A DNA stretch of 64,000 nt from assembly GCA_903920865.1 (NCBI GenBank), contig CAIXNN010000036.1, forward strand, positions 27,165 to 91,164, written 5' to 3'. This DNA is from an uncultured Actinomycetes bacterium. GTDB taxonomy: Bacteria > Actinomycetota > Actinomycetes > UBA12327. The position numbers and the translations under genes are program-made. The notes under the pieces are model-generated. The model had not been told where the DNA came from and did no database searches. It saw only the letters and a list, made by a program, of their open reading frames with translations. Shown piece after piece: positions 8,419 to 35,244 of this stretch (position 1 is the first letter of the stretch; every line of letters begins with the position of its first letter).

Positions 8419-8504
8419 AGGGCTCCTCCCAAACTGATGGACAAACGTGTCACGGTGTCACGTCGCCTAACCAGTATCGGCATGAGCAGGAGGGTTCTTG
8501 AGGC

Positions 8505-15141: not shown

Positions 15142-15276
15142 AGAAACTCCTGTGCTGTCGGACCCTTGTTCTATAGTTGCAAACAGGTTATGAGTGAGCG
15201 TCGCATGTGGCCCCTTGGCCTTGTCGCTTCAGCAACCGCGCTTTCCCGCGCACGGTGCTTCCAAGGGTTAAACCGG

Positions 15277-15302
15277 CCGGGGAAGCCAATTGGCTTCCCC
15301 GG
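15277..15302. promoter_or_regulatory. Perfect 26-bp palindrome CCGGGGAAGCCAATTGGCTTCCCCGG; a second hairpin follows at 15309-15330
   Basis: Reverse complement is identical to the forward sequence. It lies 48 nt upstream of the phosphatase ATG and 135 nt downstream of the preceding stop. The next hairpin is GGGTTTTCTGCTGTGAAAACCC. Confidence 0.5.
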
Positions 15303-15350
15303 AAGCGCGGGTTTTCTGCTGTGAAAACCCTGATCGAAAGTTGATTTGTT

Positions 15351-16671: not shown

Positions 16672-16749
16672 TGGTGGGCGATACAGGACTTGAACCTGTG
16701 ACCTCTTCCGTGTCAGGGAAGCGCGCTAGCCAGACTGCGCCAATCGCCC
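16672..16749 (-). tRNA. tRNA-Val (anticodon GAC), CCA encoded
   Basis: Cloverleaf read by hand: acceptor GGGCGAU/AUCGCCC, anticodon stem-loop CUUCC-CUGACAC-GGAAG, T-arm GGUUCAAGUCC, discriminator A plus CCA. Confidence 0.85.
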
Positions 16750-16750
16750 G

Positions 16751-16821
16751 AGGTGGAGACGGGATTTGAACCCGTGTAGACGGCTTTGCAGGCCGTTGCC
16801 TCGCCTCTCGGCCACTCCACC
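16751..16821 (-). tRNA. tRNA-Cys (anticodon GCA)
   Basis: Acceptor GGUGGAG/CUCCACC, anticodon loop CUGCAAA, T-loop GGUUCAAAUCC, discriminator U. No encoded CCA. Confidence 0.85.
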
Positions 16822-16848
16822 GCAGAATAAGCCCGAAGGCTTCATCCG

Positions 16849-16921
16849 AGCGGACGACGGGATTCGAACCCGCGACCCTCACCTTGGCAAGGTGATGCTC
16901 TACCAACTGAGCCACGTCCGC
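16849..16921 (-). tRNA. tRNA-Gly (anticodon GCC)
   Basis: Acceptor GCGGACG/CGUCCGC, D-arm GCUCAGUUGGUAGAGC, anticodon loop UUGCCAA, T-loop GGUUCGAAUCC. The spurious ORF 16394-16915 runs through the cluster. Confidence 0.85.
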
Positions 16922-18917: not shown

Positions 18918-19328
18918 TCAGGCAGCACCAAAGAGTTCAGCGATAGTTCGATCAAGATCGTTATCTAGGACTGCATCTTCGCGACCACGCTCAACAATGG
19001 TGTTCGTCTTATCAAGAAACCGTGCCAGGTCAACCACGTCAATGGCGAAGTGTGCAGTGCCACCAGGGGTGTGAAGGAGAAGGTGTACACCATCCTCATG
19101 TGGCTCTACGTGAACATCGCCATCGCCCACGGGGGTCTTCATCCCGTCCCACAGGAGGTCGCGCGCAATAGTCCAACGAACTCCGTGGTCGGCGGCCATA
19201 AAGGTCATGGTCACGGCAAGTGGATCCTCACCGGCATAGGCCACTTTGGTGCGAACAGGTAGAGCTGGTTCGTTGTCAACAACGAGCAGGACATCTAAGT
19301 CTTGGCTCAGGCTGGCTTGCGTACTCAT
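18918..19328 (-). CDS. ssgB: SsgA-like protein (SsgB-type cell-division/sporulation family)
   Basis: 136 aa. The pattern LLVVDNEPALPV...DPLAVTMTF...WTIARDLLWDGM...GDGDVHVEP...HLLLHTPGGTAHF parallels SsgB of Streptomyces, recalled from memory. Confidence 0.65.
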   Translation of the reverse strand: MSTQASLSQDLDVLLVVDNEPALPVRTKVAYAGEDPLAVTMTFMAADHGVRWTIARDLLWDGMKTPVGDGDVHVEPHEDGVHLLLHTPGGTAHFAIDVVDLARFLDKTNTIVERGREDAVLDNDLDRTIAELFGAA

Positions 19329-19908: not shown

Positions 19909-19983
19909 GGGCGATTGGCGCAGTGGTAGCGCGCTTCGTTCACACCGAAGAGGTCACTGGTTCGAACCCAGTATCGCCCACCA
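19909..19983 (+). tRNA. tRNA-Val (anticodon CAC), CCA encoded
   Basis: Acceptor GGGCGAU/AUCGCCC, anticodon loop UUCACAC, T-loop GGUUCGAACCC, ACCA 3' end. The spurious ORF 19923-20156 covers it. Confidence 0.85.
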
Positions 19984-20080
19984 TTACAGCCATGTGTACC
20001 AAGGCTTGTCGCACCTTGAAACCATTCGCACCATGGGGAAGTCTGACTAAATTAAACGGCGGGAACTCGCGGCTTAGCTC

Positions 20081-22273
20081 CTACACCGCTGAAGCTTTCG
20101 CGCGGGCCTGCGCGGCAAGTGCTGCGCAGTGCGGGCAGTTATCGCCGCGCACATGAATATCCACGGGGCGAGGAGTCCACGATCCGTCGGCACCGTTTTC
20201 GCACGCCAGACAGCGCGCCGCAGTTGGGGTGTCATCGCTCTTGGGGTTTGCCAGCCACGTGAACGCCCCGTCGAGTGGGTCCTCTTTCGGCGTTGGTTGC
20301 CGCGCGCGCGAGACCAGATCGGCCACGACCGCAGCATTTTGAAGCGTGGTGATATCGCCCAAATCTCGACCTTCGCTGATGTCGCGCAGAAGACGTCTCA
20401 TGATCTTGCCCGAACCGGTCTTGGGCAGTTCATCGGTGATCACAATGGAGGACGGCCTGGCAAAGCGACCGATCCGACCGGCCACGTGATCGCGCAGTTC
20501 GGTGATCAATTCATCGCTTGGTTCAACCGAGTTCTTGAGCGTGACGAAAGCCGCGATTGACTGACCCGTCATTGGATCTGCACGACCAACTACCGCCGCC
20601 TCTGCCACCGCGTGGTGATCTAGAAGAGCGGCTTCGAGCTCAACGGTTGAGAGGCGATGGCCTGACACGTTCATCACGTCGTCGATGCGACCGACAACCC
20701 AGATGTAGTCATCGTCATCACGCCTTGATCCGTCGCCGGCTAGGTATCGCCCTGGGTATTGCGACCAGTAGGTCTTCAGATAGCGCTCGTCGTCACCCCA
20801 CAGCGTTCGCATCATCGCTGGCCATGGGCCATCAAGCATGAGCAAACCGCCCTGGCCTGATTCGACACTTGTGCCATCCTCATTGATGACGTCTGCGCGG
20901 ATGCCCGGCAGCGGGAATGTGGCTGAACCAGGCTTGAGTGGAACCGCCCCTGGAAGCGGAGCGATCATGATCATGCCGGTTTCGGTTTGCCACCACGTGT
21001 CGACAATGGGACAGCGCCCACCGCCGACGTTGGTGTAATACCAGTCCCAGGCTTCGGGCTTGATCGGCTCACCCACCGAACCCAGCAGACGCAGTGACGT
21101 GAGGTCGTGCTTCTGGAGGTGTTCAACCCCCCACTTCATGAAGGTGTGGATAGCAGTAGGCGCGGTGTACAGGATCGTCACGCCGTAGCGCTCGATGATG
21201 CTCCAAACGCGATCTTTGTCCGGTGTGCCAGGTGCGCCTTCGTACATGACTCCTGTGGTGCCGTTGGCTAGCGGGCCGTAAACGATGTAACTGTGACCGG
21301 TAATCCAACCGATGTCGGCCGCACACCAGTAAATGTCATCACTATGGATGTCGAAGACCTGGCGATGAGTCGTGGAGACACCGACGAGATATCCGCCGGT
21401 GGTGTGCAAGATGCCTTTGGGCTTTCCAGTGGTGCCGGAGGTGTAGAGCACGAAGAGGGGATCTTCGGCATCCATCGGTTCGGGATCACAGGTGTCAGGC
21501 TGGTTCGCAACGAGCTCGTGGTACCAGTGATCGCGTCCATCAACCCACTCAACGGGGCTGCCCGTTCGTCGAGTGACAACGACGTTGGTCACTGAAGGAC
21601 AGGTCAGGAGCGCTTCGTCAACTGGCCCCTTGAGCGCAATTGAGCGGCCGTGCCGCCACGACTCGTCCTGCGTGATGACTGTGGTGCAGACCAGGTCGTT
21701 GATCCGGTCAGCGATTGCGGTGGGACTGAATCCAGCGAAGACGACGGTGTGAGGTGCCCCGATGCGTGCGCAGGCCAGCATGGCAACCGGTAGTTCAGGG
21801 ACCATGCCCATGTAGATCGCCACGGGGTCGCCCTTGCGAACGCCCAATTCCCGCAGCGCGTTGGCCATGCGACAGACGCGAGCATGCAGGTCCAGGAAAG
21901 TGATCGACTCGGTTTCGCCGGGCTCACCTTCCCAAAAGTAAGCAACCTGGTCACCCTTGGTGGGAAGGTGACGATCAAGGCAGTTCACCGACACGTTCAA
22001 TTTTCCATCGACAAACCACTTGTAGAACGGAGCATTGGAGTCATCGAGCACCTGAGTCCAAGGAGATATCCAGTCGATGCTTTGAGCCTGTTCGGCCCAG
22101 TAGCCCGTGAGGTCCTGTTCGGCCTGCTTGTAGAGCGAGCGGTCGGTGATCGCCGAGTGGGAGACGAACTCGGCCGAGGGCGCAAACATGTGATCATCGG
22201 TTTGGATGACTTCGATCAGTGGACCGCTTTGCGTTGTCAAATCTGGCGCATCGGAGCCGGGCCTTTCAGCCAT
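20081..22273 (-). CDS. acs: Acetyl-CoA synthetase (AMP-forming) with a ~70-aa C-terminal Cys-containing extension
   Basis: AMP-binding core (YTSGTTGKPKG, PKTGSGKIMRR with the conserved regulatory Lys). After LGDITTLQNAAVVADLV the ORF continues ~72 aa with CLACENG...(21 aa)...CPHC. Confidence 0.9.
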   Translation of the reverse strand: MAERPGSDAPDLTTQSGPLIEVIQTDDHMFAPSAEFVSHSAITDRSLYKQAEQDLTGYWAEQAQSIDWISPWTQVLDDSNAPFYKWFVDGKLNVSVNCLDRHLPTKGDQVAYFWEGEPGETESITFLDLHARVCRMANALRELGVRKGDPVAIYMGMVPELPVAMLACARIGAPHTVVFAGFSPTAIADRINDLVCTTVITQDESWRHGRSIALKGPVDEALLTCPSVTNVVVTRRTGSPVEWVDGRDHWYHELVANQPDTCDPEPMDAEDPLFVLYTSGTTGKPKGILHTTGGYLVGVSTTHRQVFDIHSDDIYWCAADIGWITGHSYIVYGPLANGTTGVMYEGAPGTPDKDRVWSIIERYGVTILYTAPTAIHTFMKWGVEHLQKHDLTSLRLLGSVGEPIKPEAWDWYYTNVGGGRCPIVDTWWQTETGMIMIAPLPGAVPLKPGSATFPLPGIRADVINEDGTSVESGQGGLLMLDGPWPAMMRTLWGDDERYLKTYWSQYPGRYLAGDGSRRDDDDYIWVVGRIDDVMNVSGHRLSTVELEAALLDHHAVAEAAVVGRADPMTGQSIAAFVTLKNSVEPSDELITELRDHVAGRIGRFARPSSIVITDELPKTGSGKIMRRLLRDISEGRDLGDITTLQNAAVVADLVSRARQPTPKEDPLDGAFTWLANPKSDDTPTAARCLACENGADGSWTPRPVDIHVRGDNCPHCAALAAQARAKASAV

Positions 22274-22377
22274 CAGTTACCTCGTAGGGTCATCGTTCCC
22301 GTACGAGAGACCGTCCGGCTCTCCCGTTGATTCTCATTCAATCGGAAATGCAAGGACGGCGCAAGCAGGTTGGCAAT

Positions 22378-23073
22378 CTACGACGATGTTGAGGAAACTG
22401 CTCGAGCGATAAGTACCGTCAGCATGCTCACGGCTAACAGCACTTGGAATGCCATAACGAGTTTGCCCACGCGAGACATGATCGCCTCAGAGGTTGGCCC
22501 ATAGGTTGAGTTGACGTTGAGGGAAATAAATAAGTAGTCAAGGAAGTTTGGTGTGGGCGGCTTTTCGCCTTCGCGCGCGGGCCAGACGAATGCTCCACCC
22601 GGGGTGGTGACGTCAATAAAGATGTAGACGAACGTAAAGACCAGCACGCTCATCAGGTAGACGAGGCCGACGTCCCACAAAGAGGTGAGTCCGCCACCTT
22701 GATGGGCGTTGGCGGTTCCCAACATGGAGATCACGTTAAGCACAACCTGGAAAACGGCGTATGCCAAGTAAACGGCAATGAATTTCGACAACGTGACAAA
22801 TTTGTCAGCCAGAATCGCGTAGATCATGATGCAGCTCGAAATGACGAAAAGGAACGTCCCGAAGAGTTCAAGGTTGTCGAAAAGCTTCAGCTCTGAGGTG
22901 ATGTAGCCACCATGAATCAAGTGTCGAGTCAGCAACGTATGGAGAAACCAAATCAGAACCAAGGCGCCAACAAGTCCAAAGCGGCCTTTGCCGTGGTGCA
23001 GTTGAGCCCAAAATTCTTGTGCGGGTGCTAACTCGGAGGTCATGGCAGCGCTGTCGTCTTTATCGTGTTCCAC
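22378..23073 (-). CDS. Hypothetical integral membrane protein
   Basis: 231 aa with about 5-6 hydrophobic segments. Lower-GC codon usage than its neighbours, judged by eye. Family not assigned. Confidence 0.5.
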   Translation of the reverse strand: MEHDKDDSAAMTSELAPAQEFWAQLHHGKGRFGLVGALVLIWFLHTLLTRHLIHGGYITSELKLFDNLELFGTFLFVISSCIMIYAILADKFVTLSKFIAVYLAYAVFQVVLNVISMLGTANAHQGGGLTSLWDVGLVYLMSVLVFTFVYIFIDVTTPGGAFVWPAREGEKPPTPNFLDYLFISLNVNSTYGPTSEAIMSRVGKLVMAFQVLLAVSMLTVLIARAVSSTSS

Positions 23074-23141
23074 CTCCTCAGCCTAGGGCTTTTGTGTCAG
23101 GTAGGCAGGGCTTCGAGGTGCCACCCGCCAAATCTTGCGCT

Positions 23142-24368
23142 CTAGAGCCTGGCTACAAAGTCAAAACTGTCGCGCTTGTAGCGCTTGAGGAAGCGGCTGC
23201 AGCCTTCTTGAATATTGGGATCCAACTTGGCGCAGATCGGGTCGCCATTGGATGCATGCCGAAAGTAGAAGCCGGCCACCCACCAGTTATTCATGTCCAA
23301 AACCATGGCCCGCTTAACACCTGCGTTGACCATCGTGTTGGCCATGCCTTGCGCACTTAAGCCGGGTGAACCGATGTAGATGATGCTGCCGTCGGCTCGT
23401 TGGCCAATGGCCGACCGCCAAGCAAAGGTTTCGCCGTGGGTGGTGGCACCCCACTGGAAGCTGTTTCCTGATTGAACTCGAGACGATCCGCCATCAATGA
23501 TCAAGGCCAAATTTTGTCGAGCGATCTCAACGTCTTTGGTCATGTTGACATCGCGTCCCCACTTACCGATCTTGATGGATCCATCGTTGTAAATCACCGC
23601 TGTTGCTTTACCTGAAACCAGAGGCCGCACCGTGGTGCCTTTGTAGTAGTACCCGCCACGGGTGTCATCGAGGCGAAAGGCGCCGTTGAAGTTCGCCAGC
23701 ACGCGAGATTGAAGGGATTTGCTCAATGCGCCGTTGGTAGGTGAGGGGCCACCGGGCTCTATGTAGCCGGGAACAAAGACTGCCTTGGCCAGATCAGTGT
23801 TGATCCACATCAGTGAGGCAAAAACCGAGGTGTGAATGTTGTCGGCACGAACTCGTGTCACATAGATCGCCGGTTTTCCGTTAACCGTCGAGCCAACGGG
23901 CACCCATGCCCCTTCACCCTTGAGTTTTTTTGACACCGGGGAGTCGACGGTGGCTGGGGGAGCAAGGTTTGTGGTGGCCAGCGAGTCAAGGTTCGAGCTC
24001 AAGGAAGAAGTTTGACTGGCTTGTGTCGATTGATCATTAGATGCACGAGTTGATTTTTGGCTTGATGCGGTCGCTCCGGGCTGCGTTGGCTCTGGAGTCG
24101 GGTCGGTCGTGGCCGCCGGTGATTGGACTTCGTTAAAACCTGGAACAGCGGTAGGTGATCCACCAACCGGCACCTTATTGATGTGGGCGTAATAGAAATC
24201 TTCTGCCTTCGCCACAACCGGACCTAAGTGGTGGTCGCGACCCCATTCGGCCAGGAGGACATTTTTCGGTTCGCCTTCAGAGTTTTGCACATAGCTAGAA
24301 AACGATGCAACAAAGCCGATGGCCGCAAGTGCTGCAATCCCAAGAATTGCGAAGACGATTCGTTTCAC
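23142..24368 (-). CDS. Phosphodiester glycosidase-family protein (NAGPA-like), N-terminal signal/anchor
   Basis: 408 aa. N-terminal hydrophobic helix, Thr/Pro/Ser-rich linker, then the domain with ANFNGAFRLDDTRGGYYYKGT...WRSAIGQRADGSIIYIGSPGLSA...AMVLDMNNWW. Paralogous to 25376-26569. Confidence 0.7.
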   Translation of the reverse strand: MKRIVFAILGIAALAAIGFVASFSSYVQNSEGEPKNVLLAEWGRDHHLGPVVAKAEDFYYAHINKVPVGGSPTAVPGFNEVQSPAATTDPTPEPTQPGATASSQKSTRASNDQSTQASQTSSLSSNLDSLATTNLAPPATVDSPVSKKLKGEGAWVPVGSTVNGKPAIYVTRVRADNIHTSVFASLMWINTDLAKAVFVPGYIEPGGPSPTNGALSKSLQSRVLANFNGAFRLDDTRGGYYYKGTTVRPLVSGKATAVIYNDGSIKIGKWGRDVNMTKDVEIARQNLALIIDGGSSRVQSGNSFQWGATTHGETFAWRSAIGQRADGSIIYIGSPGLSAQGMANTMVNAGVKRAMVLDMNNWWVAGFYFRHASNGDPICAKLDPNIQEGCSRFLKRYKRDSFDFVARL

Positions 24369-24371
24369 TAG

Positions 24372-25364
24372 CTACACCTGATAAATCTCTCCGGTTGTCT
24401 TATCAATGCTTACTTTGATCGCACTAAGTGGCGATGGTGCTGGTCCACCTGTGACTTGGGCTCCATGAGCTGGGTCGTAGGTGGCGCCATGACAGGGACA
24501 AATGAGTTGTTTGGAGCTCGGATCAAAATCCACGCTACAGCCCGCATGCGTGCAAACTCGTGAGTACGCCGCAACCGCGCCGCCACCTAAGCTGACGACC
24601 ACCGCCGGACTTCCGTTCGCATCTTGAAATCCAACAGCTCCTTGGCTCTGTACATCGGCAAGGCTTGCCACCACGGTGCCATTGGGCTGGTTGGCGCCTG
24701 AGGCCTTCTTAGCGGACGCCCTTTTAGTTGTTACCTTCTCTGGAGGTTTGCCCAAGGCAGAGGCGATTCCCCCGACCACAAGAGAAATCGCGATGATGAC
24801 ACCGCCACCGAGTAATTGGCGTCGATCGGTAAGCGATTGCTGAAGTGTGGGCGCTGTCTTGTTCTTTGCTCGTTCTTTAGTGGTGGTCGTCGGTTGTTTT
24901 GAAATCAAAGCAAGCACCATAGGAAAGGAGACGAGGTAGGCAAGCCAGGCGATCGTGTAGATCGAATCCGAACCGAGGAAGTAAGGACGAACATGCCAGG
25001 TTGCCGAAAGCCAAAGAGTTAGAGATAAGCCCATCCCTAGAAGTGCGGCAAGTTCGGGCAGGATCCCAGCCAAGGTGGCAAGGCCAATGGCGATCTCGCT
25101 TAATGCGGTGCCAACTCCAGCAAGAACGGGAGCATGACCTGCGGCATGTAAGAACGGCGCGATTGGACTTCCCTTGGCGAAGTTGGACAGCTGTAATCCG
25201 ATGTAGCTGGCCGTACCGGATTTCAAGAATCCTGGGTCAGACAACTTTTGCCAGCCGGCGTAAACAAAGGTGCCTCCAAGCCAACCCCGCAAGATGCGGG
25301 CCGTCCAGGATTGCTGGGGCCAACTCAGCAACTGAACGGTTGGTGGACTTGTGGCGTTACTCAT
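24372..25364 (-). CDS. DoxX-like membrane domain fused to a C-terminal Rieske [2Fe-2S] domain
   Basis: N-terminal ~150 aa has 4 hydrophobic helices (DoxX/TQO-small-subunit-like). A DRRQLLGGGVIIAISLVV Tat-like motif plus helix follows. The C-terminus carries CTHAGCSV...(16)...CPCHGATYD, the Rieske boxes CxH and CxxH. Confidence 0.7.
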   Translation of the reverse strand: MSNATSPPTVQLLSWPQQSWTARILRGWLGGTFVYAGWQKLSDPGFLKSGTASYIGLQLSNFAKGSPIAPFLHAAGHAPVLAGVGTALSEIAIGLATLAGILPELAALLGMGLSLTLWLSATWHVRPYFLGSDSIYTIAWLAYLVSFPMVLALISKQPTTTTKERAKNKTAPTLQQSLTDRRQLLGGGVIIAISLVVGGIASALGKPPEKVTTKRASAKKASGANQPNGTVVASLADVQSQGAVGFQDANGSPAVVVSLGGGAVAAYSRVCTHAGCSVDFDPSSKQLICPCHGATYDPAHGAQVTGGPAPSPLSAIKVSIDKTTGEIYQV

Positions 25365-25375
25365 GAGGATTCCCC

Positions 25376-26569
25376 TTATTTTGAATAAACCGCGAAGAAG
25401 TCGCGACTTGTTGGTGTGAGGTAGCGATTGACGGGGCGTTCAAAGGGAACGAGTTTGTGTGGTTGCAACGAACCACCTCCGTCGGTGAAATACATGTAGG
25501 AGATCCACGCTTTGTTGATGTCCAATTGCATGCCGCGAACCGCACCCGCGTGTAACAGGAGCGTGGCTAGGCTCTTCACCGACAGGGCGTCGCCGGCAAC
25601 ATAAACGAGGTCACCGCGCTTGGTGATTCCAATGCCAGAGCGCCACACAAAGTAGGCACCGCCCAGAGTTGCGCCCCACTTGGATTCCACATTCTTAGTT
25701 AAGTCTGAAGTGACTTGTCCGTTTTCAATCAGTGGTTTCAAACTTTGACGAACCGAGACCACAGCTGGGCTCATGCGGACGTCTTTATCCCAGGATCCAA
25801 CATCGGCATGACCGTCCCGATAGACCACCAGAGATGCCGCTCCTGGTTGCAGAGTGCCAGCTGTTTTCCCATCCTGGTAGTAGCCACCTTTCGCGTCCTT
25901 GATCTTGAATCCGCCATTAAAGGTTGCGATCAGGTTTGATCCAGGAGCTGCAGAAACAAAATCGCGATTGGACCAACTGGAAACATTTCCTGGATCTTCA
26001 TGACCTGGGTGCTGTACAAGGGCTGTGTGAGTGTGATTGAGCCACACCACTCCCGCCAGATAGGACGAATGTTGATTGTCGGGGCGGAGGTAGGCGATAG
26101 CCGATGTGGGATCGCCATTGTGGCTAGTAACCGTGTGGAAGATGCCTTCACCAGAGACAACACCGCTGGCGAAGGGCCGTAGGCGAGTTGGGTAAAACGA
26201 AGTATGCGTAGGTGAGCTGCCGGAGGCTGAGTTACTTTGCGTCGCGGCTTGTTGCGGAAGTGCGTTGATGATTGATGTATCGGGAGCGCCACCGATTTTT
26301 GGAGGATGCAAGCGATAGAGAGCAGATTCTGCACCTGTAACGACAAAACCTAGTTGGTGATCACGGGCCCACTCAGCCAGCTTTGCGCTCGTGGGGTCAG
26401 CGCTGGGAGATCGCAGCGCATTGACCGGGCCGATGGCAACGAGCACCACGACCACGAGAGCAATGGTTCGCAGCAGCCGAGCAATCCTTTTTCGCTTGCC
26501 TGGTTTCGTTAACCGACGGTCTTGACCGAGGCTGCGGATAGGAGGTTGTTGAGCAGGTGCAGGAGTCAA
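25376..26569 (-). CDS. Phosphodiester glycosidase-family protein (NAGPA-like), paralog 2
   Basis: 397 aa. Basic N-terminus plus one TM helix. Domain motifs ATFNGGFKIKDAKGGYYQDGKT...WRSGIGITKRGDLVYVAGDALS...GMQLDINKAW parallel the 23142-24368 product. Confidence 0.7.
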   Translation of the reverse strand: MTPAPAQQPPIRSLGQDRRLTKPGKRKRIARLLRTIALVVVVLVAIGPVNALRSPSADPTSAKLAEWARDHQLGFVVTGAESALYRLHPPKIGGAPDTSIINALPQQAATQSNSASGSSPTHTSFYPTRLRPFASGVVSGEGIFHTVTSHNGDPTSAIAYLRPDNQHSSYLAGVVWLNHTHTALVQHPGHEDPGNVSSWSNRDFVSAAPGSNLIATFNGGFKIKDAKGGYYQDGKTAGTLQPGAASLVVYRDGHADVGSWDKDVRMSPAVVSVRQSLKPLIENGQVTSDLTKNVESKWGATLGGAYFVWRSGIGITKRGDLVYVAGDALSVKSLATLLLHAGAVRGMQLDINKAWISYMYFTDGGGSLQPHKLVPFERPVNRYLTPTSRDFFAVYSK

Positions 26570-26726
26570 CAGTGCTCCCGTCGGATTGAAGTGTTACGTG
26601 CGTTGGATTCCGCTTTGCGACCCTAACTTTAGGTCCGAGTCGATGAATCGCGCTCACCCAAATCACTCATTTAGGCTTGAGAGAGCCATTCATATGGCGT
26701 GCTTAGGTTGTGGTTAGCATTGGGGA

Positions 26727-28012
26727 ATGTCCTTGCCTCCTACATCAGTGCACTCGGGGCGAGTCGTTGTCTTGTCGGCCAGCATTGGCGATGGACACAA
26801 TAGGGCAGCTCGAGAGTTGGCCAGGCGATTAACCGCGCGAGGCCAAGACGTCGATGTTCTGGATTTTTTAGAGCTGCTTCCGCTCAAGCTCGGTTCCTTG
26901 CTTCGCCGAATCTATGCGCTCCAGTTGAGTATTTGCCCACGTTCCTATGGTTCGCTCTATGCCGGTCTGGAAGACAGTAGTCATGCGATAAGCGTCGTTC
27001 GCTGGATGTTGAGTCTGGGACGACGCCGGTTTCTCAAGGCGCGCAAGGATGTTCTGGCGTCGTAGTGACCTATCCGCTTGCCGGACAAGTCCTAGGCAAA
27101 CTGCGGTCACAATCCAAACTTGAAGTACCGCTGTGGATTTATCTGACGGACTTCTCAGTTCATCCTCTGTGGGTTGTTCCTGAGGCCGACATGCACTTGG
27201 TTTTGCATCAAGTTGTTGCCGATCAGGTGCATGCCTTGAGTGTGTTTGCAAAGGTTCGAGTCAGCGGAAGTTTAGTTTCGCCAGCTTTCACCCGTCGACC
27301 GGCTGACAAAGAGCCAAAGCACGAGCTTCGATCTTCCCTCGGGCTGCCTTTGAAGCAGCCGATTGCGCTCTTGGTCGCGGGTTCTTGGGGTGTGGGCAAA
27401 GTGGTCCAGACTGCGCAGGAAATTCTGGCCAGTGGCCGAGCTATACCGGTGGTCATGTGCGGTCGCAACGCTAAATTGGTAACCGATATTAAACGCCGAG
27501 GACTGGGCATCGCCATTGGGTGGACCAACGCCATGCATGACTATATGAACGCAGCTGATGTTCTTGTTCACAATGCCGGGGGAATGAGTTCGTTAGAGGG
27601 ACTGGCCAGCGGCCTTCCGGTCCTCAGCATGAATTGCTTACCAGGGCATGGCCAAGCAAATGCAGCGGCGATGGAATCGGCTGGGCTCGCTCGCCATGTA
27701 GATACAACCCTGGGATTTGCAGCGATCTTCGAACAGGTACTTGATAAGCCAGTCATCGCACCAAGATCACTATTTGGTGACGATCCCAGTGACGACGTGT
27801 GTGACTTTCTTGAACGCGATGCTCGGGCCAAGCCGCTGCACACGCAGCCAGTACAGCCGTCCCGCGGGATGCGTCGAAAGGTTGCGGTAGGCGCACTGGG
27901 TGTCACCTTGATTGCAGTTTTTGCTGTCAGTCCGATCGGAGTTGCGGTCGCTAAACCGATTTATCGATCCCACCCGAACTTGACACCGCATCCAAGTTTT
28001 AGGCATTGGTAA
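26727..28012 (+). pseudogene. UgtP/MGDG-synthase-like glycosyltransferase split by a frameshift into 112-aa and 315-aa ORFs
   Basis: ORF1 (26727-27065) carries the family N-terminus VVVLSASIGDGHNRAARELARRL. ORF2 starts at 27065 overlapping the ORF1 stop and continues in another frame with the rest of the family architecture (TYPLAGQVLGKL...WIYLTDFSVHPLWV...LLVAGSWG...HNAGGMSSLEGLASGLPVL). The junction DVLAS|TYPLAG fits a single indel. Confidence 0.6.
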
Positions 28013-28017
28013 TTTAG

Positions 28018-28737
28018 GTGGGCGCTTCATCCAAGTCGTTCCTCTGTTTGATGGCCGTTGCAGCGCTGGGTCATGTTGGCCCGGCAGTAACGTCAATTGG
28101 CCCTTTGCGAAAAAAACTGTGGCCGCAACTGTGCGGTGTCGGCAATACGCACAGCATTGGTCTCACGTTTGATGATGGACCAGATCCGGCCTCAACGCCC
28201 TTGTTTCTCGCAGCGCTGTCTGAAATGGGCGTGAAAGCAACTTTCTTCGTCCTGGGTGAAATGCTGGACAAGGCACCTGAGCTTGGCCGGCAGATTGCGG
28301 CGGAAGGCCACGAGATTGGGATTCACGGGTGGACTCATCGCAACCACTTGCTGCTGAGCTACCCGCAAATCCGCGATGAGATTCGCCGCACGAAAGCCCG
28401 GATTCAAGACATCGCCGGCGTGACGCCGCGCTTTTATCGACCCCCGTACGGCGTGGTGACGGGCGGAGATTTGCTCGCCGTCAGGACACAAGACATGGAA
28501 CTTGTCTTGTGGACATCCTGGGGGAAGGACTGGCAGGCGCGAGCCACCGGAGAGTCTGTCATTGAGGAACTTAAGAAGGGCGGCGTGGTGGGTGGGGCAA
28601 CACTTTTGCTCCACGACAGTGACTGCACATCGGCTCCCGGCTCGTGGAGGTCGTCGTTGTCTGCCCTGTCCGAGTTGTCTAGTTATTGTGTGGAACAAAG
28701 GCTTGATCTAGTTCCACTTGCGGAACACATGAAGTGA
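28018..28737 (+). CDS. Polysaccharide deacetylase (NodB-homology)
   Basis: Signal peptide, then LTFDDGPDP, HGWTHR and RPPYG motifs of the carbohydrate esterase 4 family. Confidence 0.8.
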   Translation: MGASSKSFLCLMAVAALGHVGPAVTSIGPLRKKLWPQLCGVGNTHSIGLTFDDGPDPASTPLFLAALSEMGVKATFFVLGEMLDKAPELGRQIAAEGHEIGIHGWTHRNHLLLSYPQIRDEIRRTKARIQDIAGVTPRFYRPPYGVVTGGDLLAVRTQDMELVLWTSWGKDWQARATGESVIEELKKGGVVGGATLLLHDSDCTSAPGSWRSSLSALSELSSYCVEQRLDLVPLAEHMK

Positions 28738-28742
28738 ACCAG

Positions 28743-29138
28743 TTATTTTGAAGAGGTGTCATCCGTCCACGATGAGCCATCCCAAAACCGATTAATGGTC
28801 GAGTCACTGGGGTCTGCGTACCAACCGGCTGGTGTGGGGGAGTGTTGAGTTAGGGCAGCGGCGAGGCCCTGTAGATCCTTGCGCTGTTTGCGACGGAAGT
28901 GCAGTTGGATCCTGCGGCCATCGGTGGTGAACAAGTCAATGCGCCCATTGACCAGCATGAACATAAATGCGTTGGGTTGCTTAACTTTGACGTCAGCAAC
29001 TTGATTGCGCTCCAAAATCAAGGGCTGATCCCATGACTGACCTGCCAAGGCAATCTTTGACATCTTGTTGGTTCCAACGATGTTGATCGCATGTCCGTCA
29101 TAATCAATGGTCACCATGTACCCCGTGAAAGTTGTCAT
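28743..29138 (-). CDS. Bacterial PH-like N-terminal domain with DUF2510-like C-terminal motif
   Basis: 131 aa. The C-terminus GWYADPSDSTINRFWDGSSWTDD is the DUF2510 motif. The N-terminal ~95 aa are beta-rich (MVTIDYDGHAINIVG...NGRIDLFTTDGRRIQLHF), like bPH/DUF4429-type domains. Confidence 0.55.
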   Translation of the reverse strand: MTTFTGYMVTIDYDGHAINIVGTNKMSKIALAGQSWDQPLILERNQVADVKVKQPNAFMFMLVNGRIDLFTTDGRRIQLHFRRKQRKDLQGLAAALTQHSPTPAGWYADPSDSTINRFWDGSSWTDDTSSK

Positions 29139-29253
29139 AGACCCACGCTAACCCCGTGGGCAGACAGGTTCTGGGCGCCTTGCTCGGTAGGCTGAGGGCA
29201 TTCCCACAGGTAGGCGTGGGATTCACTGCTGGTTCAAGGCCTGGGAGAGCGCT

Positions 29254-31248
29254 GTGTCAACGCTGAGCGTCACGATCGATGGAGTGCCAAGCGAGTGTGC
29301 TGCTGGCGCGACCGGTCTGGATGTCTTTGCCGAGCGCCGTGAAGTAGTAGTCATGCGCATCGATGGCGAATTGCGCGACTTGCATTTGCCCATTGAAGCC
29401 GGTCAGGCCATTGAAGCGGTCACCATTGATTCACCCGATGGCCTGATGGTGATGCGCCATTCAACGGCTCACGTTTTGGCCCAAGCCGTTCAGCAGATCA
29501 ATCCGAGCGCGAAGCTAGGCATCGGACCGCCGATTGACAACGGTTTCTACTATGACTTTGACGTGGAAACGCCATTCACGCCCGATGACCTCAAGGCCAT
29601 TGAAAAGCGCATGGAACAGATCGTTAAACAGGGTCAACGCTTTGCTCGTCGAGTTGTGACCGATGAAGCGGCCCGTACTGAACTGGCTCACGAGCCGTAC
29701 AAATTAGAGTTGATCGGCCTTAAGGGTGGCGCGGACCTAGACGGCGATGTGATGGAAGTTGGCGGCGCGGAATTGACGATGTATGACAACGTCAATGCCA
29801 AGACCGGCGAGCGCGAATGGTTTGACCTGTGCCGCGGCCCGCACGTGCCCACCACGCGGTTGATCCCAGCCTTTAAGTTGATGCGTTCGGCGGCGGCGTA
29901 TTGGCGCGGGAGCGAAAAGAATCCGCAGCTGCAGCGAATCTATGGCACCGCGTGGGCTAGCCGCGATGACCTCAAGGCGCACCTGACCTTTTTGGAAGAG
30001 GCGGAAAAGCGCGACCACCGTCGCCTAGGCACCGAGCTTGACCTGTTTTCCTTCCCTGACGAAATCGGTTCAGGCTTGGCGGTGTTCCACCCCAAGGGCG
30101 GAATCATCCGTCGCGTCATGGAGGACTACTCGCGCAAGCAACACGAAGCCGCGAACTATGAGTTTGTGTACAGCCCGCACTTGACCAAGTCGATCTTGTT
30201 TGAAAAATCAGGTCACTTGGACTGGTACTCCGAAGGCATGTACCCACCGATGGACTTGGACACCGAGTACGACGCCGATGGTCAGGTCAAACGCCAGGGC
30301 GCTCAGTACTACATGAAGCCCATGAACTGTCCGTTCCACAACTTGATCTATAGCGCGCGCGGACGCTCCTATCGCGAACTGCCGTTACGCTTGTTTGAAT
30401 TCGGAACGGTGTATCGCTACGAGAAGTCCGGTGTGGTCCATGGCTTGACCCGCGCCCGCGGATTTACCCAGGACGATGCGCACATCTATTGCACGCGCGA
30501 ACAGATGGCCGAAGAACTTGATCGCTTGTTGACCTTCGTGCTGGACCTGTTGCGCGACTACGGGCTCGATGACTTCTACCTTGAGTTGTCCACCCGCGAT
30601 CCGAACAAGTCCATCGGCAGCGATGAGGTGTGGGAGGAAGCCACTGAGGTTTTGCGCTCGGTAGCGCAGAATCAGGGACTGGAATTGGTCATGGACCCTG
30701 AAGGCGCTGCCTTCTACGGCCCGAAGATTTCCGTCCAAACGCGCGACGCCATTGGCCGCTCATGGCAAATGTCCACCATTCAGGTTGACTTCAACTTGCC
30801 CGAGCGCTTTGACCTTGAATACCAAGCATCTGATGGCTCTCGCCAACGACCGGTGATGATTCACCGCGCGCTCTTTGGTTCCATTGAGCGCTTCTTTGCG
30901 GTTTTGCTTGAACACTATGCCGGGGCTTTCCCTCCGTGGTTAGCTCCCGTTCAAGTTGTCGGGATCCCGATTGCCGACGAACACGTTCCGTACTTGGAAG
31001 GCGTAGCTGAAAAACTTCGCGCGGCCGGCATTCGCGTTGAGGTGGATGCATCAAGCGAGCGGATGCAAAAGAAAATTCGCAATGCGCAAAAACAAAAAGT
31101 CCCTTACATGCTTATCGCCGGTGATGAAGATGCGGCTGCGGGCGCAGTCTCATTCCGTTTTCGTGATGGAACCCAAGACAATGGCGTTGTCGTCGATGAA
31201 GCAATCGCGCGCGTAGTCGATGCGGTTAACCGACGCATCCAGGTGTGA
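29254..31248 (+). CDS. thrS: Threonine--tRNA ligase
   Basis: 664 aa. TGS N-terminus, second additional domain, class II core ([11 protein letters not shown], motif 2/3) and the anticodon-binding C-terminus. Confidence 0.95.
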
Positions 31249-31775
31249 TGATGAGTTACACGGATGCCTTTGATCGCCTCTGGACGCCACATCGAATGGC
31301 GTACATCAAGGGTGAAAACAAGCCGAGCACAGCCGATGCTGGTGATCACTGTCCCTTTTGCAGTTCACCGCACGACCCCGCTGAGGAATCACTGGTCATA
31401 GCAACCGGACAGCACGTTTATGCGGTTCTCAATCGCTACCCCTACAACGCCGGTCACCTTTTGATCTGCCCCTTTGAGCACCTGGCTGATTACATTGACT
31501 TGCCAACGGGAGCATTAGCTGAGTTCACCGAGTTCACGGTTACTGCGATCAATGTTCTTAAGGAAGTCTCACGTCCTGCTGGCTTCAATATCGGGATGAA
31601 TCAGGGCGGTGCTGCAGGTGCCGGAATTGCCGCACACCTGCACCAACATGTGGTGCCTCGCTGGGGCGGGGATACAAATTTCATGCCCGTGGTTGCCGGG
31701 ACCCGCATATTGCCCGAGTTATTAGTACAAACCCGTGAGCTTTTGTCGCAGGCCTGGAGTCAGCATGCTGGCTAA
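31245..31775 (+). CDS. HIT-family protein (histidine triad)
   Basis: [10 protein letters not shown] is the HxHxHxx triad. 4-nt overlap with thrS, as in the mycobacterial thrS-HIT-pgsA operon. Confidence 0.85.
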
Positions 31776-31807
31776 CATCGTTGCTGTAAACCATCAAGGG
31801 TCGGGAG

Positions 31808-32437
31808 GTGGAGCCAGTGAGTCAGCCAGCTGAACTCGAGCGGAAAGCAAAAGCTAAGGACCTTGCTTCACGTGCCATTGATCCGATCGCGCGGGGCCTG
31901 CTAAAGCTTCATGTCTCTGCTGACGCGGTAACAATCACTGGAACCCTGGGAGCGGTGGTTGCCGCTTTGTGGTGCTTTCCAACCGGCCACCTTGTTGCGG
32001 GAGCAATCATCGTCTCACTCTTCGCTTTCAGTGACATGATTGATGGCTCCATGGCCCGGCAAGCTGGGAAGGTTTCGGAGTGGGGAGCCTTTCTCGATTC
32101 GCTCCTTGATCGCGTAACCGATGCGGCTATTTTTGCCGGCTTGACGATTTGGTTTTTGGGAAATGGCAATGAGCCAATTCTTGGATACGCATCGCTTTAT
32201 TGCTTAGCCGCCGGCCAAGTCATTAGTTATGCGCGCGCCCGAGCTGAAGGTTTGGGTCTGAAAGCTTCAGGTGGCATTGCCGAGCGAACCGAGCGCCTTG
32301 TTCTTGTCCTGACAGTGACCGTGTTCTCAGGTCTTGGGGTTCCTTTTGTCCAGGCCATTGGTTTGTGGGTCTTGGTTGCGGCCATCACCGCTACCGTCAT
32401 TCAACGCATGATCATGGTTCGTCGGCAGGTTTCCTAA
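31808..32437 (+). CDS. pgsA: CDP-alcohol phosphatidyltransferase (phosphatidylinositol phosphate synthase-like)
   Basis: The DMIDGSMARQAGKVSEWGAFLDSLLDRVTD motif is D-x2-DG-x2-AR...G-x3-D-x3-D. Positioned between HIT and the acyltransferase. Confidence 0.8.
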   Translation: MEPVSQPAELERKAKAKDLASRAIDPIARGLLKLHVSADAVTITGTLGAVVAALWCFPTGHLVAGAIIVSLFAFSDMIDGSMARQAGKVSEWGAFLDSLLDRVTDAAIFAGLTIWFLGNGNEPILGYASLYCLAAGQVISYARARAEGLGLKASGGIAERTERLVLVLTVTVFSGLGVPFVQAIGLWVLVAAITATVIQRMIMVRRQVS

Positions 32438-33343
32438 GTGGGCAATGTGCGCGATCGCGCCGTGGATCTGGCGTATGCAGCTGGCTGGAGTGTGGCCGGA
32501 GCGGTTCCGGAGCGCCTGGTTCGTAAGTCATTTTCGGTGCTTGCTGATCAAACCTGGGCACGCGATGGGGATGGCGTACGACGACTCAGTTCGAATCTGG
32601 CACGCGTGGTTGACCCGAACACCTCTCCTGCTGAGCTTGCCGAGCTAACTCGCCTATCGATGCAGTCCTATATGAGGTACTGGCGCGAAACGTTTTCATT
32701 GGCGCAATGGAGTCGCGAAGAGGTCCTTTCTCGCATTCATGTTGTCAATCCAGAGGTGGTTCAAACTCTCGTTGATGATGACCGTGGCTTGGTGATTGCT
32801 CTATCTCACAGTGGCAACTGGGATTTAGGTGGTGCGTGGCTCGGCATTGCCCATGGCGCCTTCACAACCGTTGCTGAACGCCTCAAGCCAGAAGCACTCT
32901 TTGAGAGATTCAAAGCCCATCGTGAGTCTTTGGGGATGGAAATCTTGGCTGCTGATGGTGGGCCGAGAGTTTTAGCCACCATGAAAACTCGACTGCGTGA
33001 AGGTGGCATTGTGTGCTTGCTTGCCGATCGTGATCTGAGTGGAAATGGAATCCCAGTCAATTTCTTCGGCGCCCCGGCCCACTTTCCGGCCGGTCCTGCT
33101 GCGCTGGCCACAAGCACCGGCGCTGCTTTGCTTACCGTGCGGTTTTATTACAAGGGCGAGCAGATGGCCATTGAGTTTGATGAACCATTGCGTGAAGTAT
33201 TGCCGGCGACAGCTCCTAGGCATGATCGAATTCAGGTGTTGACTCAGCAGATGGCCGATGCCTTCCAAGCAAATATCAGTGCCCATCCCACGGACTGGCA
33301 CATGATGCAGCCGTTCTGGGATGAGGATCGGGGATTGTTGTGA
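32438..33343 (+). CDS. Lipid A biosynthesis-type (LpxL/HtrB family) acyltransferase, PIM acyltransferase-like
   Basis: 301 aa. HSGNWDLGG is an HX4D-like acyltransferase motif variant. Location matches the Rv2611c-type gene. Confidence 0.75.
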   Translation: MGNVRDRAVDLAYAAGWSVAGAVPERLVRKSFSVLADQTWARDGDGVRRLSSNLARVVDPNTSPAELAELTRLSMQSYMRYWRETFSLAQWSREEVLSRIHVVNPEVVQTLVDDDRGLVIALSHSGNWDLGGAWLGIAHGAFTTVAERLKPEALFERFKAHRESLGMEILAADGGPRVLATMKTRLREGGIVCLLADRDLSGNGIPVNFFGAPAHFPAGPAALATSTGAALLTVRFYYKGEQMAIEFDEPLREVLPATAPRHDRIQVLTQQMADAFQANISAHPTDWHMMQPFWDEDRGLL

Positions 33344-34584
33344 GCGAATCTGAGTTGATCAGTGCGGAGGGGACCGATTCCAGCGGCCCATCGCCCACGC
33401 ACCAATTTCGACGAATCGGGATCGTGTGCCCATATTCCTGGGATGCGCCCGGTGGGGTGCAGACTCATGTTCGCGACTTAGCCCATGCCCTGATCGCCAA
33501 GGGGTACGAAGTTTCGGTGCTGGCTCCTGGTGATGATGAACCAGATGAGGATTTTGTGGTCTCGGCCGGACGAGCAATTCCCATTCGCTACAACGGTTCG
33601 GTCGCCCGCTTGATTTTCGGGCCACTGTCCACGCAGCGAGTGCGCAGGTGGATTGATGAAGGTCACTTTGACATCTTGCACGTGCACGAACCGGCCGCAC
33701 CAAGTTTGTCACTAGTTGCAACGTGGGCGGCCGAAGGTGCAATCGTTGGCACGTTCCACACCTCAAATGAAAACTCACGAATGATGTCCGGCACCGCGAG
33801 AATCTTGCGATCAGCCCTAGAGAAACTCAATGGGCGCATTTCGGTCAGCGAGTATGCGCGTGAAACCTTGCGCGAGCACATCGGATTTGATTCAGTCATC
33901 GTTCCCAATGGAGTTGATGTTGCGTTTTATGCCGACGCTGAGCCGATGACTTCCACTCCTGTTGACGCTGAAGTGGTCACCTTCTTGGGCCGGGTTGATG
34001 AACCACGTAAAGGTTTTCAGGTATTTGCTCAAGCGATGCAGGCCATTGCGCGAGAGCGGACCGAGGCGGTGTTTTACGTTGCCGGGCCAGGTGATGTGGA
34101 TTCTGCCCTGAAGTTAGTCCCGCGCTCACTCCATGGGCGCATCCATTTCATGGGTCGAATATCTGATGGGCAAAAGGCTGCTCTGCTTCGTCGAAGCAAC
34201 GTATTTGTTGCCCCCAACACCGGCGGAGAGAGTTTCGGAATTATTTTGCTTGAGGCCATGGCCGCCGGTGCGTGCGTGGTGGCAAGCGACCTTGAAGCCT
34301 TCGTCAAGGTGCTGGGAGACGATGGCGCTGGGCGCCTTTTCCCCAATGAGGACTATGAAGCATTAGCACGTGAAGTCATTGAATTATTGACGGACAAGGC
34401 TGTCCGAGAGCGCATTGCTCATCACGGTCGCGATCGGGCGTATTCCTACGATTGGAATGCGGTGGTCAATGAAGTCATAGAAATTTATGACACGGTTTAT
34501 GTGCCCGGTGAGGTTGTTCGTGAAGATGTAGGTGCAACCGCACTTGGTCGCGCAAAACTTTGGGGCAGGGGTGATTCATCGTGA
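33340..34584 (+). CDS. pimA: GT4-family phosphatidylinositol alpha-mannosyltransferase
   Basis: 414 aa. N-terminal GIVCPYSWDAPGGVQTHVRDLA and the C-terminal GT-B nucleotide-sugar domain (ESFGIILLEAMAAG). Confidence 0.8.
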   Translation: MSESELISAEGTDSSGPSPTHQFRRIGIVCPYSWDAPGGVQTHVRDLAHALIAKGYEVSVLAPGDDEPDEDFVVSAGRAIPIRYNGSVARLIFGPLSTQRVRRWIDEGHFDILHVHEPAAPSLSLVATWAAEGAIVGTFHTSNENSRMMSGTARILRSALEKLNGRISVSEYARETLREHIGFDSVIVPNGVDVAFYADAEPMTSTPVDAEVVTFLGRVDEPRKGFQVFAQAMQAIARERTEAVFYVAGPGDVDSALKLVPRSLHGRIHFMGRISDGQKAALLRRSNVFVAPNTGGESFGIILLEAMAAGACVVASDLEAFVKVLGDDGAGRLFPNEDYEALAREVIELLTDKAVRERIAHHGRDRAYSYDWNAVVNEVIEIYDTVYVPGEVVREDVGATALGRAKLWGRGDSS

Positions 34585-35165: not shown

Positions 35166-35244
35166 GGCTCCAACGTCAGACTCCTGAATTTGCCGATTGC
35201 GCCATCGCCTACGATGGACACCTAGGGCCATCAACTGTTGAGGT

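Follow-up and report, generated by a model that had tools for sequence, protein, structure and literature searches.

A DoxD-Rieske fusion gene between two NAGPA-fold genes at a strain-variable locus of freshwater actinobacteria

Proteins of the DoxD/DoxX family, such as DoxDA of the Acidianus thiosulfate:quinone oxidoreductase (TQO) and BtdS of hydroxyhydroquinone dehydrogenase, have in common a membrane module of four transmembrane (TM) helices and are known as the membrane, quinone-side subunits of dehydrogenases (PMC10084136). QcrA and the other polytopic redox proteins of the dual Sec/Tat class carry a C-terminal bc-type Rieske domain, with a twin-arginine motif immediately upstream of their final TM helix and positive charges after it (PMC3471235, PMC5449189). 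Stand-alone Rieske proteins of the PetC3 type (PDB 5CXM), an extra Rieske protein of the cyanobacterial plasma membrane, do not possess a DoxD module. NAGPA and the bacterial DUF2233 proteins (6PKU, 3OHG) are extracytoplasmic or luminal and membrane-tethered. The DGGGS sugar-phosphate loop of NAGPA is reported to be strictly invariant, and the substitutions G288A, G289A and S290A abolish the activity of the human enzyme (PMC13474241).

Elements of all these systems meet at one locus of the 64,000-nucleotide stretch analysed here (the window; Table 1). Three genes on the minus strand encode a NAGPA-family protein (PDG_A), a DoxD-Rieske fusion protein and a second NAGPA-family protein (PDG_B). 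The ORF coordinates agree with the first-pass annotation, which had described three same-strand genes, with 11 nt between PDG_A and the fusion gene and 3 nt between the latter and PDG_B. Since each has hundreds of conserved homologs, these are real genes and not chance ORFs. A Shine-Dalgarno sequence, AAGGGGA, lies upstream of the fusion gene, and co-transcription at the window locus is likely. PDG_A and the glycosyltransferase gene diverge, and both promoters presumably lie in the intervening region. A promoter scan found nothing in that region, and over the whole scan a single promoter-like site was detected against 3.8 expected, while the terminator-like sites were all intragenic. No regulatory RNA was detected by Rfam in the vicinity of the cassette.

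Table 1. Features of the locus, in window coordinates
Feature	Position	Strand	Details and basis
Five-TM membrane protein gene	22378..23073	-	231 aa, weak DUF1345 match; 68 nt downstream of PDG_B
PDG_B gene	23142..24368	-	408 aa, GTG start; ORF list and homologs
PDG_B loop D-M-N-N-W-W replacing DGGGS	23280-23297	-	Alignment
PDG_B TM anchor	24303-24359	-	One N-terminal hydrophobic anchor, type II
DoxD-Rieske fusion gene	24372..25364	-	330 aa, ATG start; ORF list and homologs
Rieske [2Fe-2S] domain, bc1/b6f type	24375..24683	-	Profile matches, alignment, structure match
Rieske box II CPCH	24489-24500	-	Motif
Rieske box I CTHAGC	24537-24554	-	Motif
TM5 LLGGGVIIAISLVVGGIAS	24759..24815	-	Hydrophobicity prediction
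Twin arginine R181 R182 (Tat-like motif DRRQLLGG), immediately N-terminal to TM5	24819..24824	-	Alignment; PMC5449189
DoxD/DoxX four-helix membrane module	24900..25295	-	aa 24-155
PDG_A gene	25376..26569	-	397 aa, TTG start; ORF list and homologs
PDG_A loop D-I-N-K-A-W replacing DGGGS	25505-25522	-	Alignment
PDG_A TM anchor	26429-26485	-	One N-terminal hydrophobic anchor, type II
Divergent intergenic region, PDG_A/glycosyltransferase	26570..26726	.	ORF coordinates
Glycosyltransferase, MGDG-synthase/diglucosyl-diacylglycerol-synthase-like	26727..28012	+	Domain matches
Polysaccharide deacetylase, NodB/PgdA type	28018..28737	+	Domain matches

Both halves of the fusion protein are recognised by Pfam well above the cut-offs (Rieske, 46.2 bits against 20.3; DoxD PF04173, 37.2 bits against 22.7). 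The predicted order is a four-TM DoxD/DoxX module, a K/R-rich cytoplasmic linker, a fifth TM helix and an external Rieske domain. Five of the 16 residues that follow TM5 (24711-24758) are K or R. This topology of K/R-rich linker, twin arginine, TM5 and renewed positive charge fits the dual Sec/Tat class, in which QcrA is the nearest comparison. Unlike in QcrA, the N-terminal helices form a DoxD/DoxX module and not the QcrA anchor; qcrB and qcrC were not found nearby, and Tat export of the fusion is a prediction. Among the hallmarks published for Tat-dependent TM segments is a low hydrophobicity, which TM5 does not display on the Kyte-Doolittle scale: its value, 2.21, is the highest among the helices detected in the fusion. 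The AF2 model of the fusion has a pTM of 0.60, and its inter-domain geometry is not confident.

The two Rieske boxes quoted by the first-pass annotation are present in the fusion at the positions listed in Table 1. The two extra cysteines of these boxes make up the disulfide pair of bc1/b6f Rieske proteins. Where bc1 proteins have a Ser, the fusion has Ala294, and an Em of roughly +100 to +150 mV would be expected of its centre. The top NCBIfam match of the domain is actinobacterial QcrA, and the closest structural match is PetC3. The fusion family counts more than 894 homologs and about 163 clusters (50% identity) at E<=1e-30; those whose source is named all come from Actinomycetota MAGs. C271, H273, C276, C289, C291, H292 and the R181-R182 pair are invariant in 27 of 27 aligned fusion sequences. 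The pattern CxHxxC...CxCH is kept in 247 of 266 homologs, the remainder being mostly short sequences, so that the Rieske ligands, whose absence would have counted against the first-pass proposal, do persist in the orthologs. An RR pair stands upstream of the boxes in 240 of the 266. Within the DoxD module, the loop between TM3 and TM4, SATWHVRPYFLGSDSIY, is near-invariant in the family (invariant across the 27 aligned sequences) and is predicted to face outward. A literature search for DoxD- or DoxX-Rieske fusions found no paper on this architecture, in keeping with the first-pass view that it is without described precedent. An actinobacterial Rieske homologue with five TM segments (KSE_30950) was mentioned in passing in 2017 (PMC5449189).

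A survey of the genomic surroundings of the family took in 80 loci, and in 54 of these the fusion is full-length. Genes in these loci, at about 70% GC, were called with a GC3 filter, since longest-ORF calls gave spurious antisense ORFs. Among 74 immediate neighbours, distributed over 50 families, the census recorded histidine kinases (13-14), response regulators (7), AIRS (11) and PfkB (7) proteins. The usual neighbours of the fusion are thus a two-component system and housekeeping genes.

The census bears on two other identities for the fusion. In the first, it would dock on the organism's cytochrome bc (QcrB) complex in the role of an alternative Rieske subunit, with DoxD helices that do no more than stand in for the QcrA anchor. 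A bc/b6f-type Rieske domain complete with the disulfide cysteines, together with the QcrA and PetC3 matches, would suit such a role. However, no cytochrome b family turned up in the 25 commonest neighbour families or in the annotated window genes of the 19-38 kb interval, and the invariance of the outer DoxD loop suggests that the module is more than an anchor. We consider docking on QcrB improbable. In the second, the fusion would be a TQO subunit, an idea that draws on the DoxD match and on the name that IMG assigns automatically, 'thiosulfate dehydrogenase [quinone] large subunit'. That name is a domain-transfer annotation, and characterised TQO is made of DoxD and DoxA (PMC10084136). DoxA does not figure among the 25 commonest neighbour families and had no match in the 16 window genes scanned; on this ground the TQO identity was rejected and is given next to no credence. 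In contrast to TQO and to the BtdS enzyme, the redox partner here is fused to the DoxD module and is an outward-facing Rieske centre, and no DoxA or BtdL-type partner accompanies it.

The two PDG proteins match the Pfam NAGPA family (PF09992) with 33.1 and 36.4 bits (cut-off 25), both matches ending at profile position 137 of 169. The domain assignments made at first pass for all three proteins therefore hold, all Pfam scores being above the cut-offs. PDG_A and PDG_B share 32% identity over 381 aa (E 5e-51) and are true paralogs, as had been proposed; on the PDG_B profile, PDG_A aligns over 365 columns with probability 100. Their PDG domains are predicted to be extracytoplasmic, again as proposed: both proteins carry a type II anchor, and the C-terminal tail of PDG_B contains a conserved pair of cysteines. 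The AF2 model of PDG_B (pLDDT 83) was matched by Foldseek to 3OHG (E 1e-12) and to the NAGPA structures 6PKY, 6PKU and 6PKI (E 1e-10 to 1e-11), with probability 1.0. At the sequence level, similarity to the solved NAGPA structures is marginal: phmmer with PDG_B against the PDB sequences gave no match, and the family profile alone reached NAGPA, at E 0.17. With NAGPA and the DUF2233 proteins the PDGs share the fold, an Asp that ends the same beta-strand and an R-[ST]-A-I-G segment. This Asp (D358 in PDG_B, D350 in PDG_A) is invariant and is the counterpart of the catalytic Asp, human D286; in the weak alignment with 6PKU (E 0.17) it falls on the D of NAINLD. Unlike NAGPA, both PDGs further possess a low-complexity linker and, next to the membrane, a helical domain (LAEW-RDH-LG), and the GGGS of DGGGS is replaced in them by [M/I]-N-x-x-W. 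DGGGS is found in none of 120 PDG_B-family proteins and in 1 of 120 PDG_A-family proteins.

For this reason the name 'phosphodiester glycosidase' has a less secure footing than was assumed: the NAGPA fold and the catalytic Asp bear it out, while the loop needed for NAGPA activity is absent. It could even be that PDG_A and PDG_B are non-catalytic NAGPA-fold proteins, that is, glycan binders or scaffolds whose catalytic loop has been lost, and the near-complete absence of DGGGS in both families and the inactivating human substitutions argue for this. Against it stands the invariance of the Asp and of many polar residues across both clades (among them NG-F, WGAT, WRS-IG and D-x-N), the pattern usually seen in enzymes that remain active with an altered pocket. 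Loss of catalysis is a minority possibility, though one to be reckoned with.

PDG_A and PDG_B each fall into an actinobacterial orthogroup of their own, both of them widespread. The neighbours of PDG_B orthologs include GlnE, GlnA, PEMT and alpha/beta-hydrolase genes. Genes for UbiA, FAD_binding_4 and adh_short proteins occur in three of four PDG_A ortholog contexts, and the same genes adjoin a PDG_B ortholog in another locus (L091). In a related metagenome contig, L141, orthologs of PDG_A and PDG_B (60% each) enclose an alpha/beta-hydrolase gene and are followed by DprE2-, DprE1- and UbiA-like genes, so the PDG_A-X-PDG_B sandwich exists elsewhere with another gene in the middle. In a distant genome, L143, a stand-alone DoxX gene is located directly upstream of UbiA-DprE1-DprE2-PDG_A; judging from this one gene order, an association of DoxX with PDG genes may be recurrent. 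The envelope-glycan setting proposed at first pass is upheld by these neighbours and, in the window, by the adjacent glycosyltransferase and deacetylase genes. The deacetylase gene is part of a variable PDA-GT-PDG_A block. The glycosyltransferase gene is broken in the window by a 1-nt deletion near 27043; its copy in the related locus L090 is intact and encodes 428 aa. A tblastn search of the window with the DPA-synthesis, two-component-system, alpha/beta-hydrolase, GT87 and DoxX proteins of the related loci gave no match.

In one freshwater actinobacterial species cluster, the DoxD-Rieske fusion fills the middle slot of the sandwich. The full cassette of PDG_A, fusion and PDG_B was found in the window, L090 and L094 only, whose ThrRS sequences are 96-99% identical to that of the window; a cassette devoid of PDG_A is present in L081-L083 and L093. 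The order DoxD-Rieske-PDG_B-TM is kept in all related haplotypes of the cluster (3-4 counted), the five-TM gene following PDG_B in every one and being present in two copies in L094. The haplotypes form a mosaic of identity along the locus, and breakpoints fall within the fusion gene. Recombination is at work in this region, which varies from strain to strain.

Outside this cluster the linkage disappears. Neither PDG had a tblastn or phmmer match in the 80 loci surveyed, and none of the 54 loci with a full-length fusion has a PDG gene within 6 kb. The NAGPA family is likewise missing from the 25 commonest neighbour families. Conversely, of 48 PDG_B loci, only the near-identical L093 and L094 contain the fusion; about 40 ortholog loci lack it. 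The cassette is thus not conserved as a unit, an outcome that the first-pass annotation had itself named as counting against its proposal.

That proposal was a functional coupling of the redox centre to the PDGs. In its present form it would make the three proteins one system in this lineage, the Rieske/DoxD centre giving or taking electrons for a PDG-dependent step on an envelope glycoconjugate. The tight gene spacing with its Shine-Dalgarno sequence, the core order retained in all related haplotypes, the predicted placement of all extracytoplasmic domains on the same side of the membrane, and the presence beside PDG orthologs of a gene for a FAD-dependent DprE1-like protein, joined in L143 by DoxX, are what one would expect of it. 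On the other side, linkage is confined to a single species cluster, one haplotype dispenses with PDG_A, and the breakpoints inside the fusion gene argue against co-adapted alleles. Moreover, hydrolysis of the NAGPA type does not need a redox cofactor (PMC13474241). A single system is therefore unlikely, as is a conserved dependence, at the level of mechanism, of the PDGs and the Rieske centre on each other.

The explanation that we moderately favour is that the locus consists of two independently evolving parts: an envelope-glycan PDG pair, and an autonomous, quinol-linked and Sec/Tat-inserted Rieske module that landed between its two members, in a strain-variable island. The short intergenic gaps, the Shine-Dalgarno sequence and the retained DoxD-Rieske-PDG_B-TM order speak against it, being compatible with a lineage-specific functional unit, and the possible DoxX-PDG association seen in L143 also counts on that side. 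PDG_A and PDG_B would attack sugar-1-phosphate diester linkages in envelope glycoconjugates, the most plausible substrates being polyprenyl-phosphate pentoses or wall-polymer linkage units. The pocket that receives these substrates would differ from that of NAGPA, with D-[M/I]-N-x-x-W in place of DGGGS. As to the fusion, Sec would insert the four DoxD helices, after which the cytoplasmic linker would present the RR motif. The folded, cluster-loaded Rieske domain would then be exported by Tat and anchored by TM5. From domain identity only, we infer that the DoxD module may bind menaquinol at its conserved outer-face loop and transfer electrons one at a time to the bc-type [2Fe-2S] centre tethered to it. 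The latter would reduce some extracytoplasmic acceptor, or electron flow would be reversed. On this view DoxD-Rieske, which normally stands alone, would serve as a minimal module for quinol-linked redox chemistry or sensing. A bolder and rather unlikely extension is that the family constitutes an unrecognised respiratory or signalling module that passes electrons from menaquinol to its own Tat-exported surface Rieske centre without cytochrome b, often beside a two-component system, and that its recruitment into the PDG pair of the freshwater lineage makes envelope sugar-phosphate turnover depend on how reduced the quinone pool is.

A redox-driven system for envelope glycans would be new biology if true; the genome comparison lends it no support. 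The analysis brings into view a large, unstudied family in uncultured Actinomycetota that joins a Rieske domain to a DoxX-type module and may carry out quinol chemistry independently of cytochrome b. The same family adds to the candidates for membrane insertion by Sec and Tat together. The PDGs represent an actinobacterial NAGPA-fold clade in which the supposedly invariant DGGGS is replaced, and their repeated location beside decaprenyl-phosphate-arabinose-synthesis-like genes provides a concrete substrate hypothesis for bacterial PDG proteins. The locus as a whole exemplifies a recombining, strain-variable envelope island in freshwater actinobacteria.

The three cassette genes lie on one strand, separated by 11 nt (PDG_A/fusion) and 3 nt (fusion/PDG_B), as the first-pass annotation had described. 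They are probably co-transcribed, with an AAGGGGA Shine-Dalgarno sequence ahead of the fusion gene. The family assignments made there are borne out by Pfam. Both outer proteins match NAGPA/PF09992 (33 and 36 bits; cut-off 25), and the middle one matches DoxD (37 bits) and Rieske (46 bits). PDG_A and PDG_B are real paralogs (32% identity over 381 residues, E 5e-51), each with the expected N-terminal anchor, a single hydrophobic helix, which in PDG_A follows a K/R-rich cytoplasmic tail.

Features of the cassette and elsewhere in the window
Feature	Coordinates	Strand	Remarks
PDG_A	26569..25376	minus	ORF, 397 aa, TTG start
DoxD-Rieske fusion	25364..24372	minus	ORF, 330 aa
PDG_B	24368..23142	minus	ORF, 408 aa, GTG start
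Five-TM protein gene	23073..22378	minus	231 aa; weak DUF1345 match, its sole family match; 68 nt past PDG_B
Glycosyltransferase (GT) gene	26727-28012		MGDG-synthase-like; split
Acetyl-CoA synthetase (ACS) gene	20081-22273	minus
tRNA gene	19909-19980
SAM-IV riboswitch	15186-15313		Rfam
Three tandem tRNA genes	16675-16921		Rfam
c-di-GMP-I riboswitch	62896-62973		Rfam

The proposal that the three genes form a unit, in which the Rieske centre is redox-linked to the PDGs, predicts that they travel together. The fusion profile retrieved 80 genome loci, 54 of which encode a full-length fusion, and tblastn and phmmer found a PDG relative within ~6 kb in none of the 80. Among 74 immediate neighbours of the fusion gene surveyed by Pfam, NAGPA is outside the 25 commonest of 50 families; histidine kinase (13-14), AIRS/ThiL-like (11), response regulator (7), PfkB (7) and PALP (5) are the frequent ones, and gene contexts inspected individually agree. 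Conversely, PDG_B relatives occur in 48 metagenome loci and are accompanied by the fusion gene only in L093 and L094, both near-identical to the window, while some 40 PDG_B orthologs (49-59% identity) are without it. The usual neighbours of these orthologs are glnE, glnA, a PEMT-like gene and alpha/beta-hydrolases. A middle gene enclosed by two PDG paralogs does occur in a related contig, L141, where orthologs of PDG_A and PDG_B (60% each) lie 42 and 34 nt from a 316-aa alpha/beta-hydrolase gene between them; here the middle gene is a hydrolase, and the redox link is not supported. A coupled PDG/Rieske system retains residual support from the tight gene spacing, the stability of the core gene order within this lineage and one distant DoxX-UbiA-DprE1-DprE2-PDG_A arrangement. 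The cassette is not conserved as a unit, and having the fusion flanked by PDG paralogs is a rearrangement specific to this lineage, not a conserved system.

Around the fusion gene itself, an OmpR-type response regulator or a histidine kinase is the immediate neighbour in about half of the DoxD-Rieske loci (census L001-L057). The two-component pair and the fusion gene diverge in both loci with called genes (L087, 5921-7964; L089, 3454-5442), and a ThiL-like AIRS gene often adjoins.

Within the species cluster, relatives have a threonyl-tRNA synthetase (ThrRS) 96-99% identical to that of the window, and three haplotypes are seen. The window and L090 carry thrS-DUF2510-deacetylase-GT, then PDG_A-fusion-PDG_B and the five-TM gene. 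L094 is without the polysaccharide deacetylase and GT genes, has an intact PDG_A (394 aa) and bears the five-TM gene in two tandem copies (7296-8751). L081, L082, L083 and L093 are without PDG_A, GT and deacetylase, DUF2510 being followed directly by the fusion gene. The five-TM gene accompanies the cassette in all haplotypes. Over window 22300-31300, nucleotide identity to L090 and L081 is a mosaic in which 97-100% blocks alternate with 59-85% blocks. Against L090 it is 97-100% over deacetylase-GT-PDG_A (28910-25312), 59-81% over most of the fusion gene and PDG_B, and again 98-99% in the five-TM gene; against L081 it is ~99% over most of the Rieske end and PDG_B and 67-85% in the DoxD half. 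Recombination has thus had breakpoints within the fusion gene, and the locus behaves as an envelope island that varies between strains. PDG_B alleles differ by 26% in protein sequence between genomes whose ThrRS is ~97% identical. The window GT is broken into ORFs of 112 and 315 aa by a 1-nt deletion near 27043, relative to the 99% identical, intact 428-aa gene of L090, which makes it a pseudogene unless the deletion is an assembly error.

The cassette is placed between the thrS-yebC core block and a tRNA/SsgA region (an SsgA-like gene is present; regions noted are 18918-19328 and 29254-37495). In the core block, the row thrS-HIT-CDP-alcohol phosphatidyltransferase-lipid A-type acyltransferase-GT4 is conserved in actinobacteria and resembles phosphatidylinositol-mannoside genes; pdxS, pdxT and yebC come after it. 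The ACS gene adjoins a tRNA gene and is absent from L090. In L094 an ACS gene cut off by the contig end, with its first 66 residues present, lies beyond a duplicated five-TM copy. This region (19909-22273) is an insertion/deletion polymorphism at the tRNA.

The fusion belongs to a family with hundreds of full-length homologs (163 clusters at 50% identity, E<=1e-30, in an exhaustive HMMER scan), those with a named source being Actinomycetota metagenome bins. Loss of the Rieske ligands, which would have counted against the original proposal, is not seen: CxHxxC...CxCH is present in 247/266 homologs, with the twin arginine upstream in 240, the exceptions being mostly short sequences. Among 27 diverse members C271, H273, C276, C289, C291, H292 and the twin arginine R181-R182 are invariant, and the TM3-TM4 loop SATWHxxPYFLGSDSxY mostly so. 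Hydropathy places four DoxD helices first, then a K/R-rich linker with DRRQLLGG at its end, then a fifth helix, five K/R among the 16 residues after it, and finally the Rieske domain. The same layout has been described in actinobacterial proteins whose membrane insertion uses Sec and Tat jointly (PMC5449189; PMC3471235), and a Rieske homologue with five TMDs, the twin arginine adjoining TMD5, is mentioned in that work (PMC5449189). From layout and precedent together we infer an outward orientation for the Rieske domain as well as for the conserved DoxD loop. On the Kyte-Doolittle scale, however, the last helix does not show the low hydrophobicity published as one hallmark of Tat-dependent TMDs. 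The fusion would be inserted dually by Sec and Tat, and electrons may pass from menaquinol to the Rieske centre at the outer face of the membrane. It is best filed among the polytopic Tat substrates, as a DoxX-family module with a bc-type Rieske domain fused to it. The automatic name "thiosulfate dehydrogenase [quinone]" lacks credibility, since neither the commonest neighbour families nor the window genes scanned included a DoxA partner. A literature search on DoxD/DoxX with Rieske found no paper describing the fusion.

The envelope-glycan setting proposed for the PDGs is supported by the neighbours of their orthologs. In L141 the PDG/hydrolase set is followed by adh_short, FAD_binding_4 and UbiA genes, a trio that we take to resemble the DprE2/DprE1/UbiA genes of decaprenyl-phosphate-arabinose synthesis, the pathway known from mycobacteria. 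It also lies beside PDG genes in L091, L142 and L143, and not in L145 (trio and PDG: L141 1944-8366, L091 4588-12215, L142 7001-11177, L143 3513-8167; the FAD_binding_4 gene also matches ALO). A stand-alone DoxX gene heads the row in L143, GT87 and Wzy_C genes are added to it in L091, and L142 has a heliorhodopsin gene (3179-4348) at a distance of three genes, upstream of a PDG_A ortholog.

The PDG_A and PDG_B orthogroups (>246 and >1846 hits, respectively) share their whole architecture (hhalign probability 100, 365 columns), and a confident predicted model of PDG_B (pLDDT 83) has structural matches in bacterial DUF2233 (3OHG, E 1e-12) and in vertebrate NAGPA. The sugar-phosphate loop DGGGS is reported to be strictly invariant, and G288A, G289A and S290A to abolish activity of human NAGPA (2026 structural study, PMC13474241). 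It is found in 0/120 PDG_B-family and 1/120 PDG_A-family members. The Asp is kept (D358 in PDG_B, D350 in PDG_A) within DMNNWW and DINKAW, respectively. Since the two clades share many further invariant polar residues, we favour active enzymes with a different sugar-phosphate pocket over pseudoenzymes. Such enzymes would hydrolyse sugar-phosphate bonds, and gene context and NAGPA chemistry point to polyprenyl-phosphate pentoses or GlcNAc-1-P linkage units as candidate substrates.
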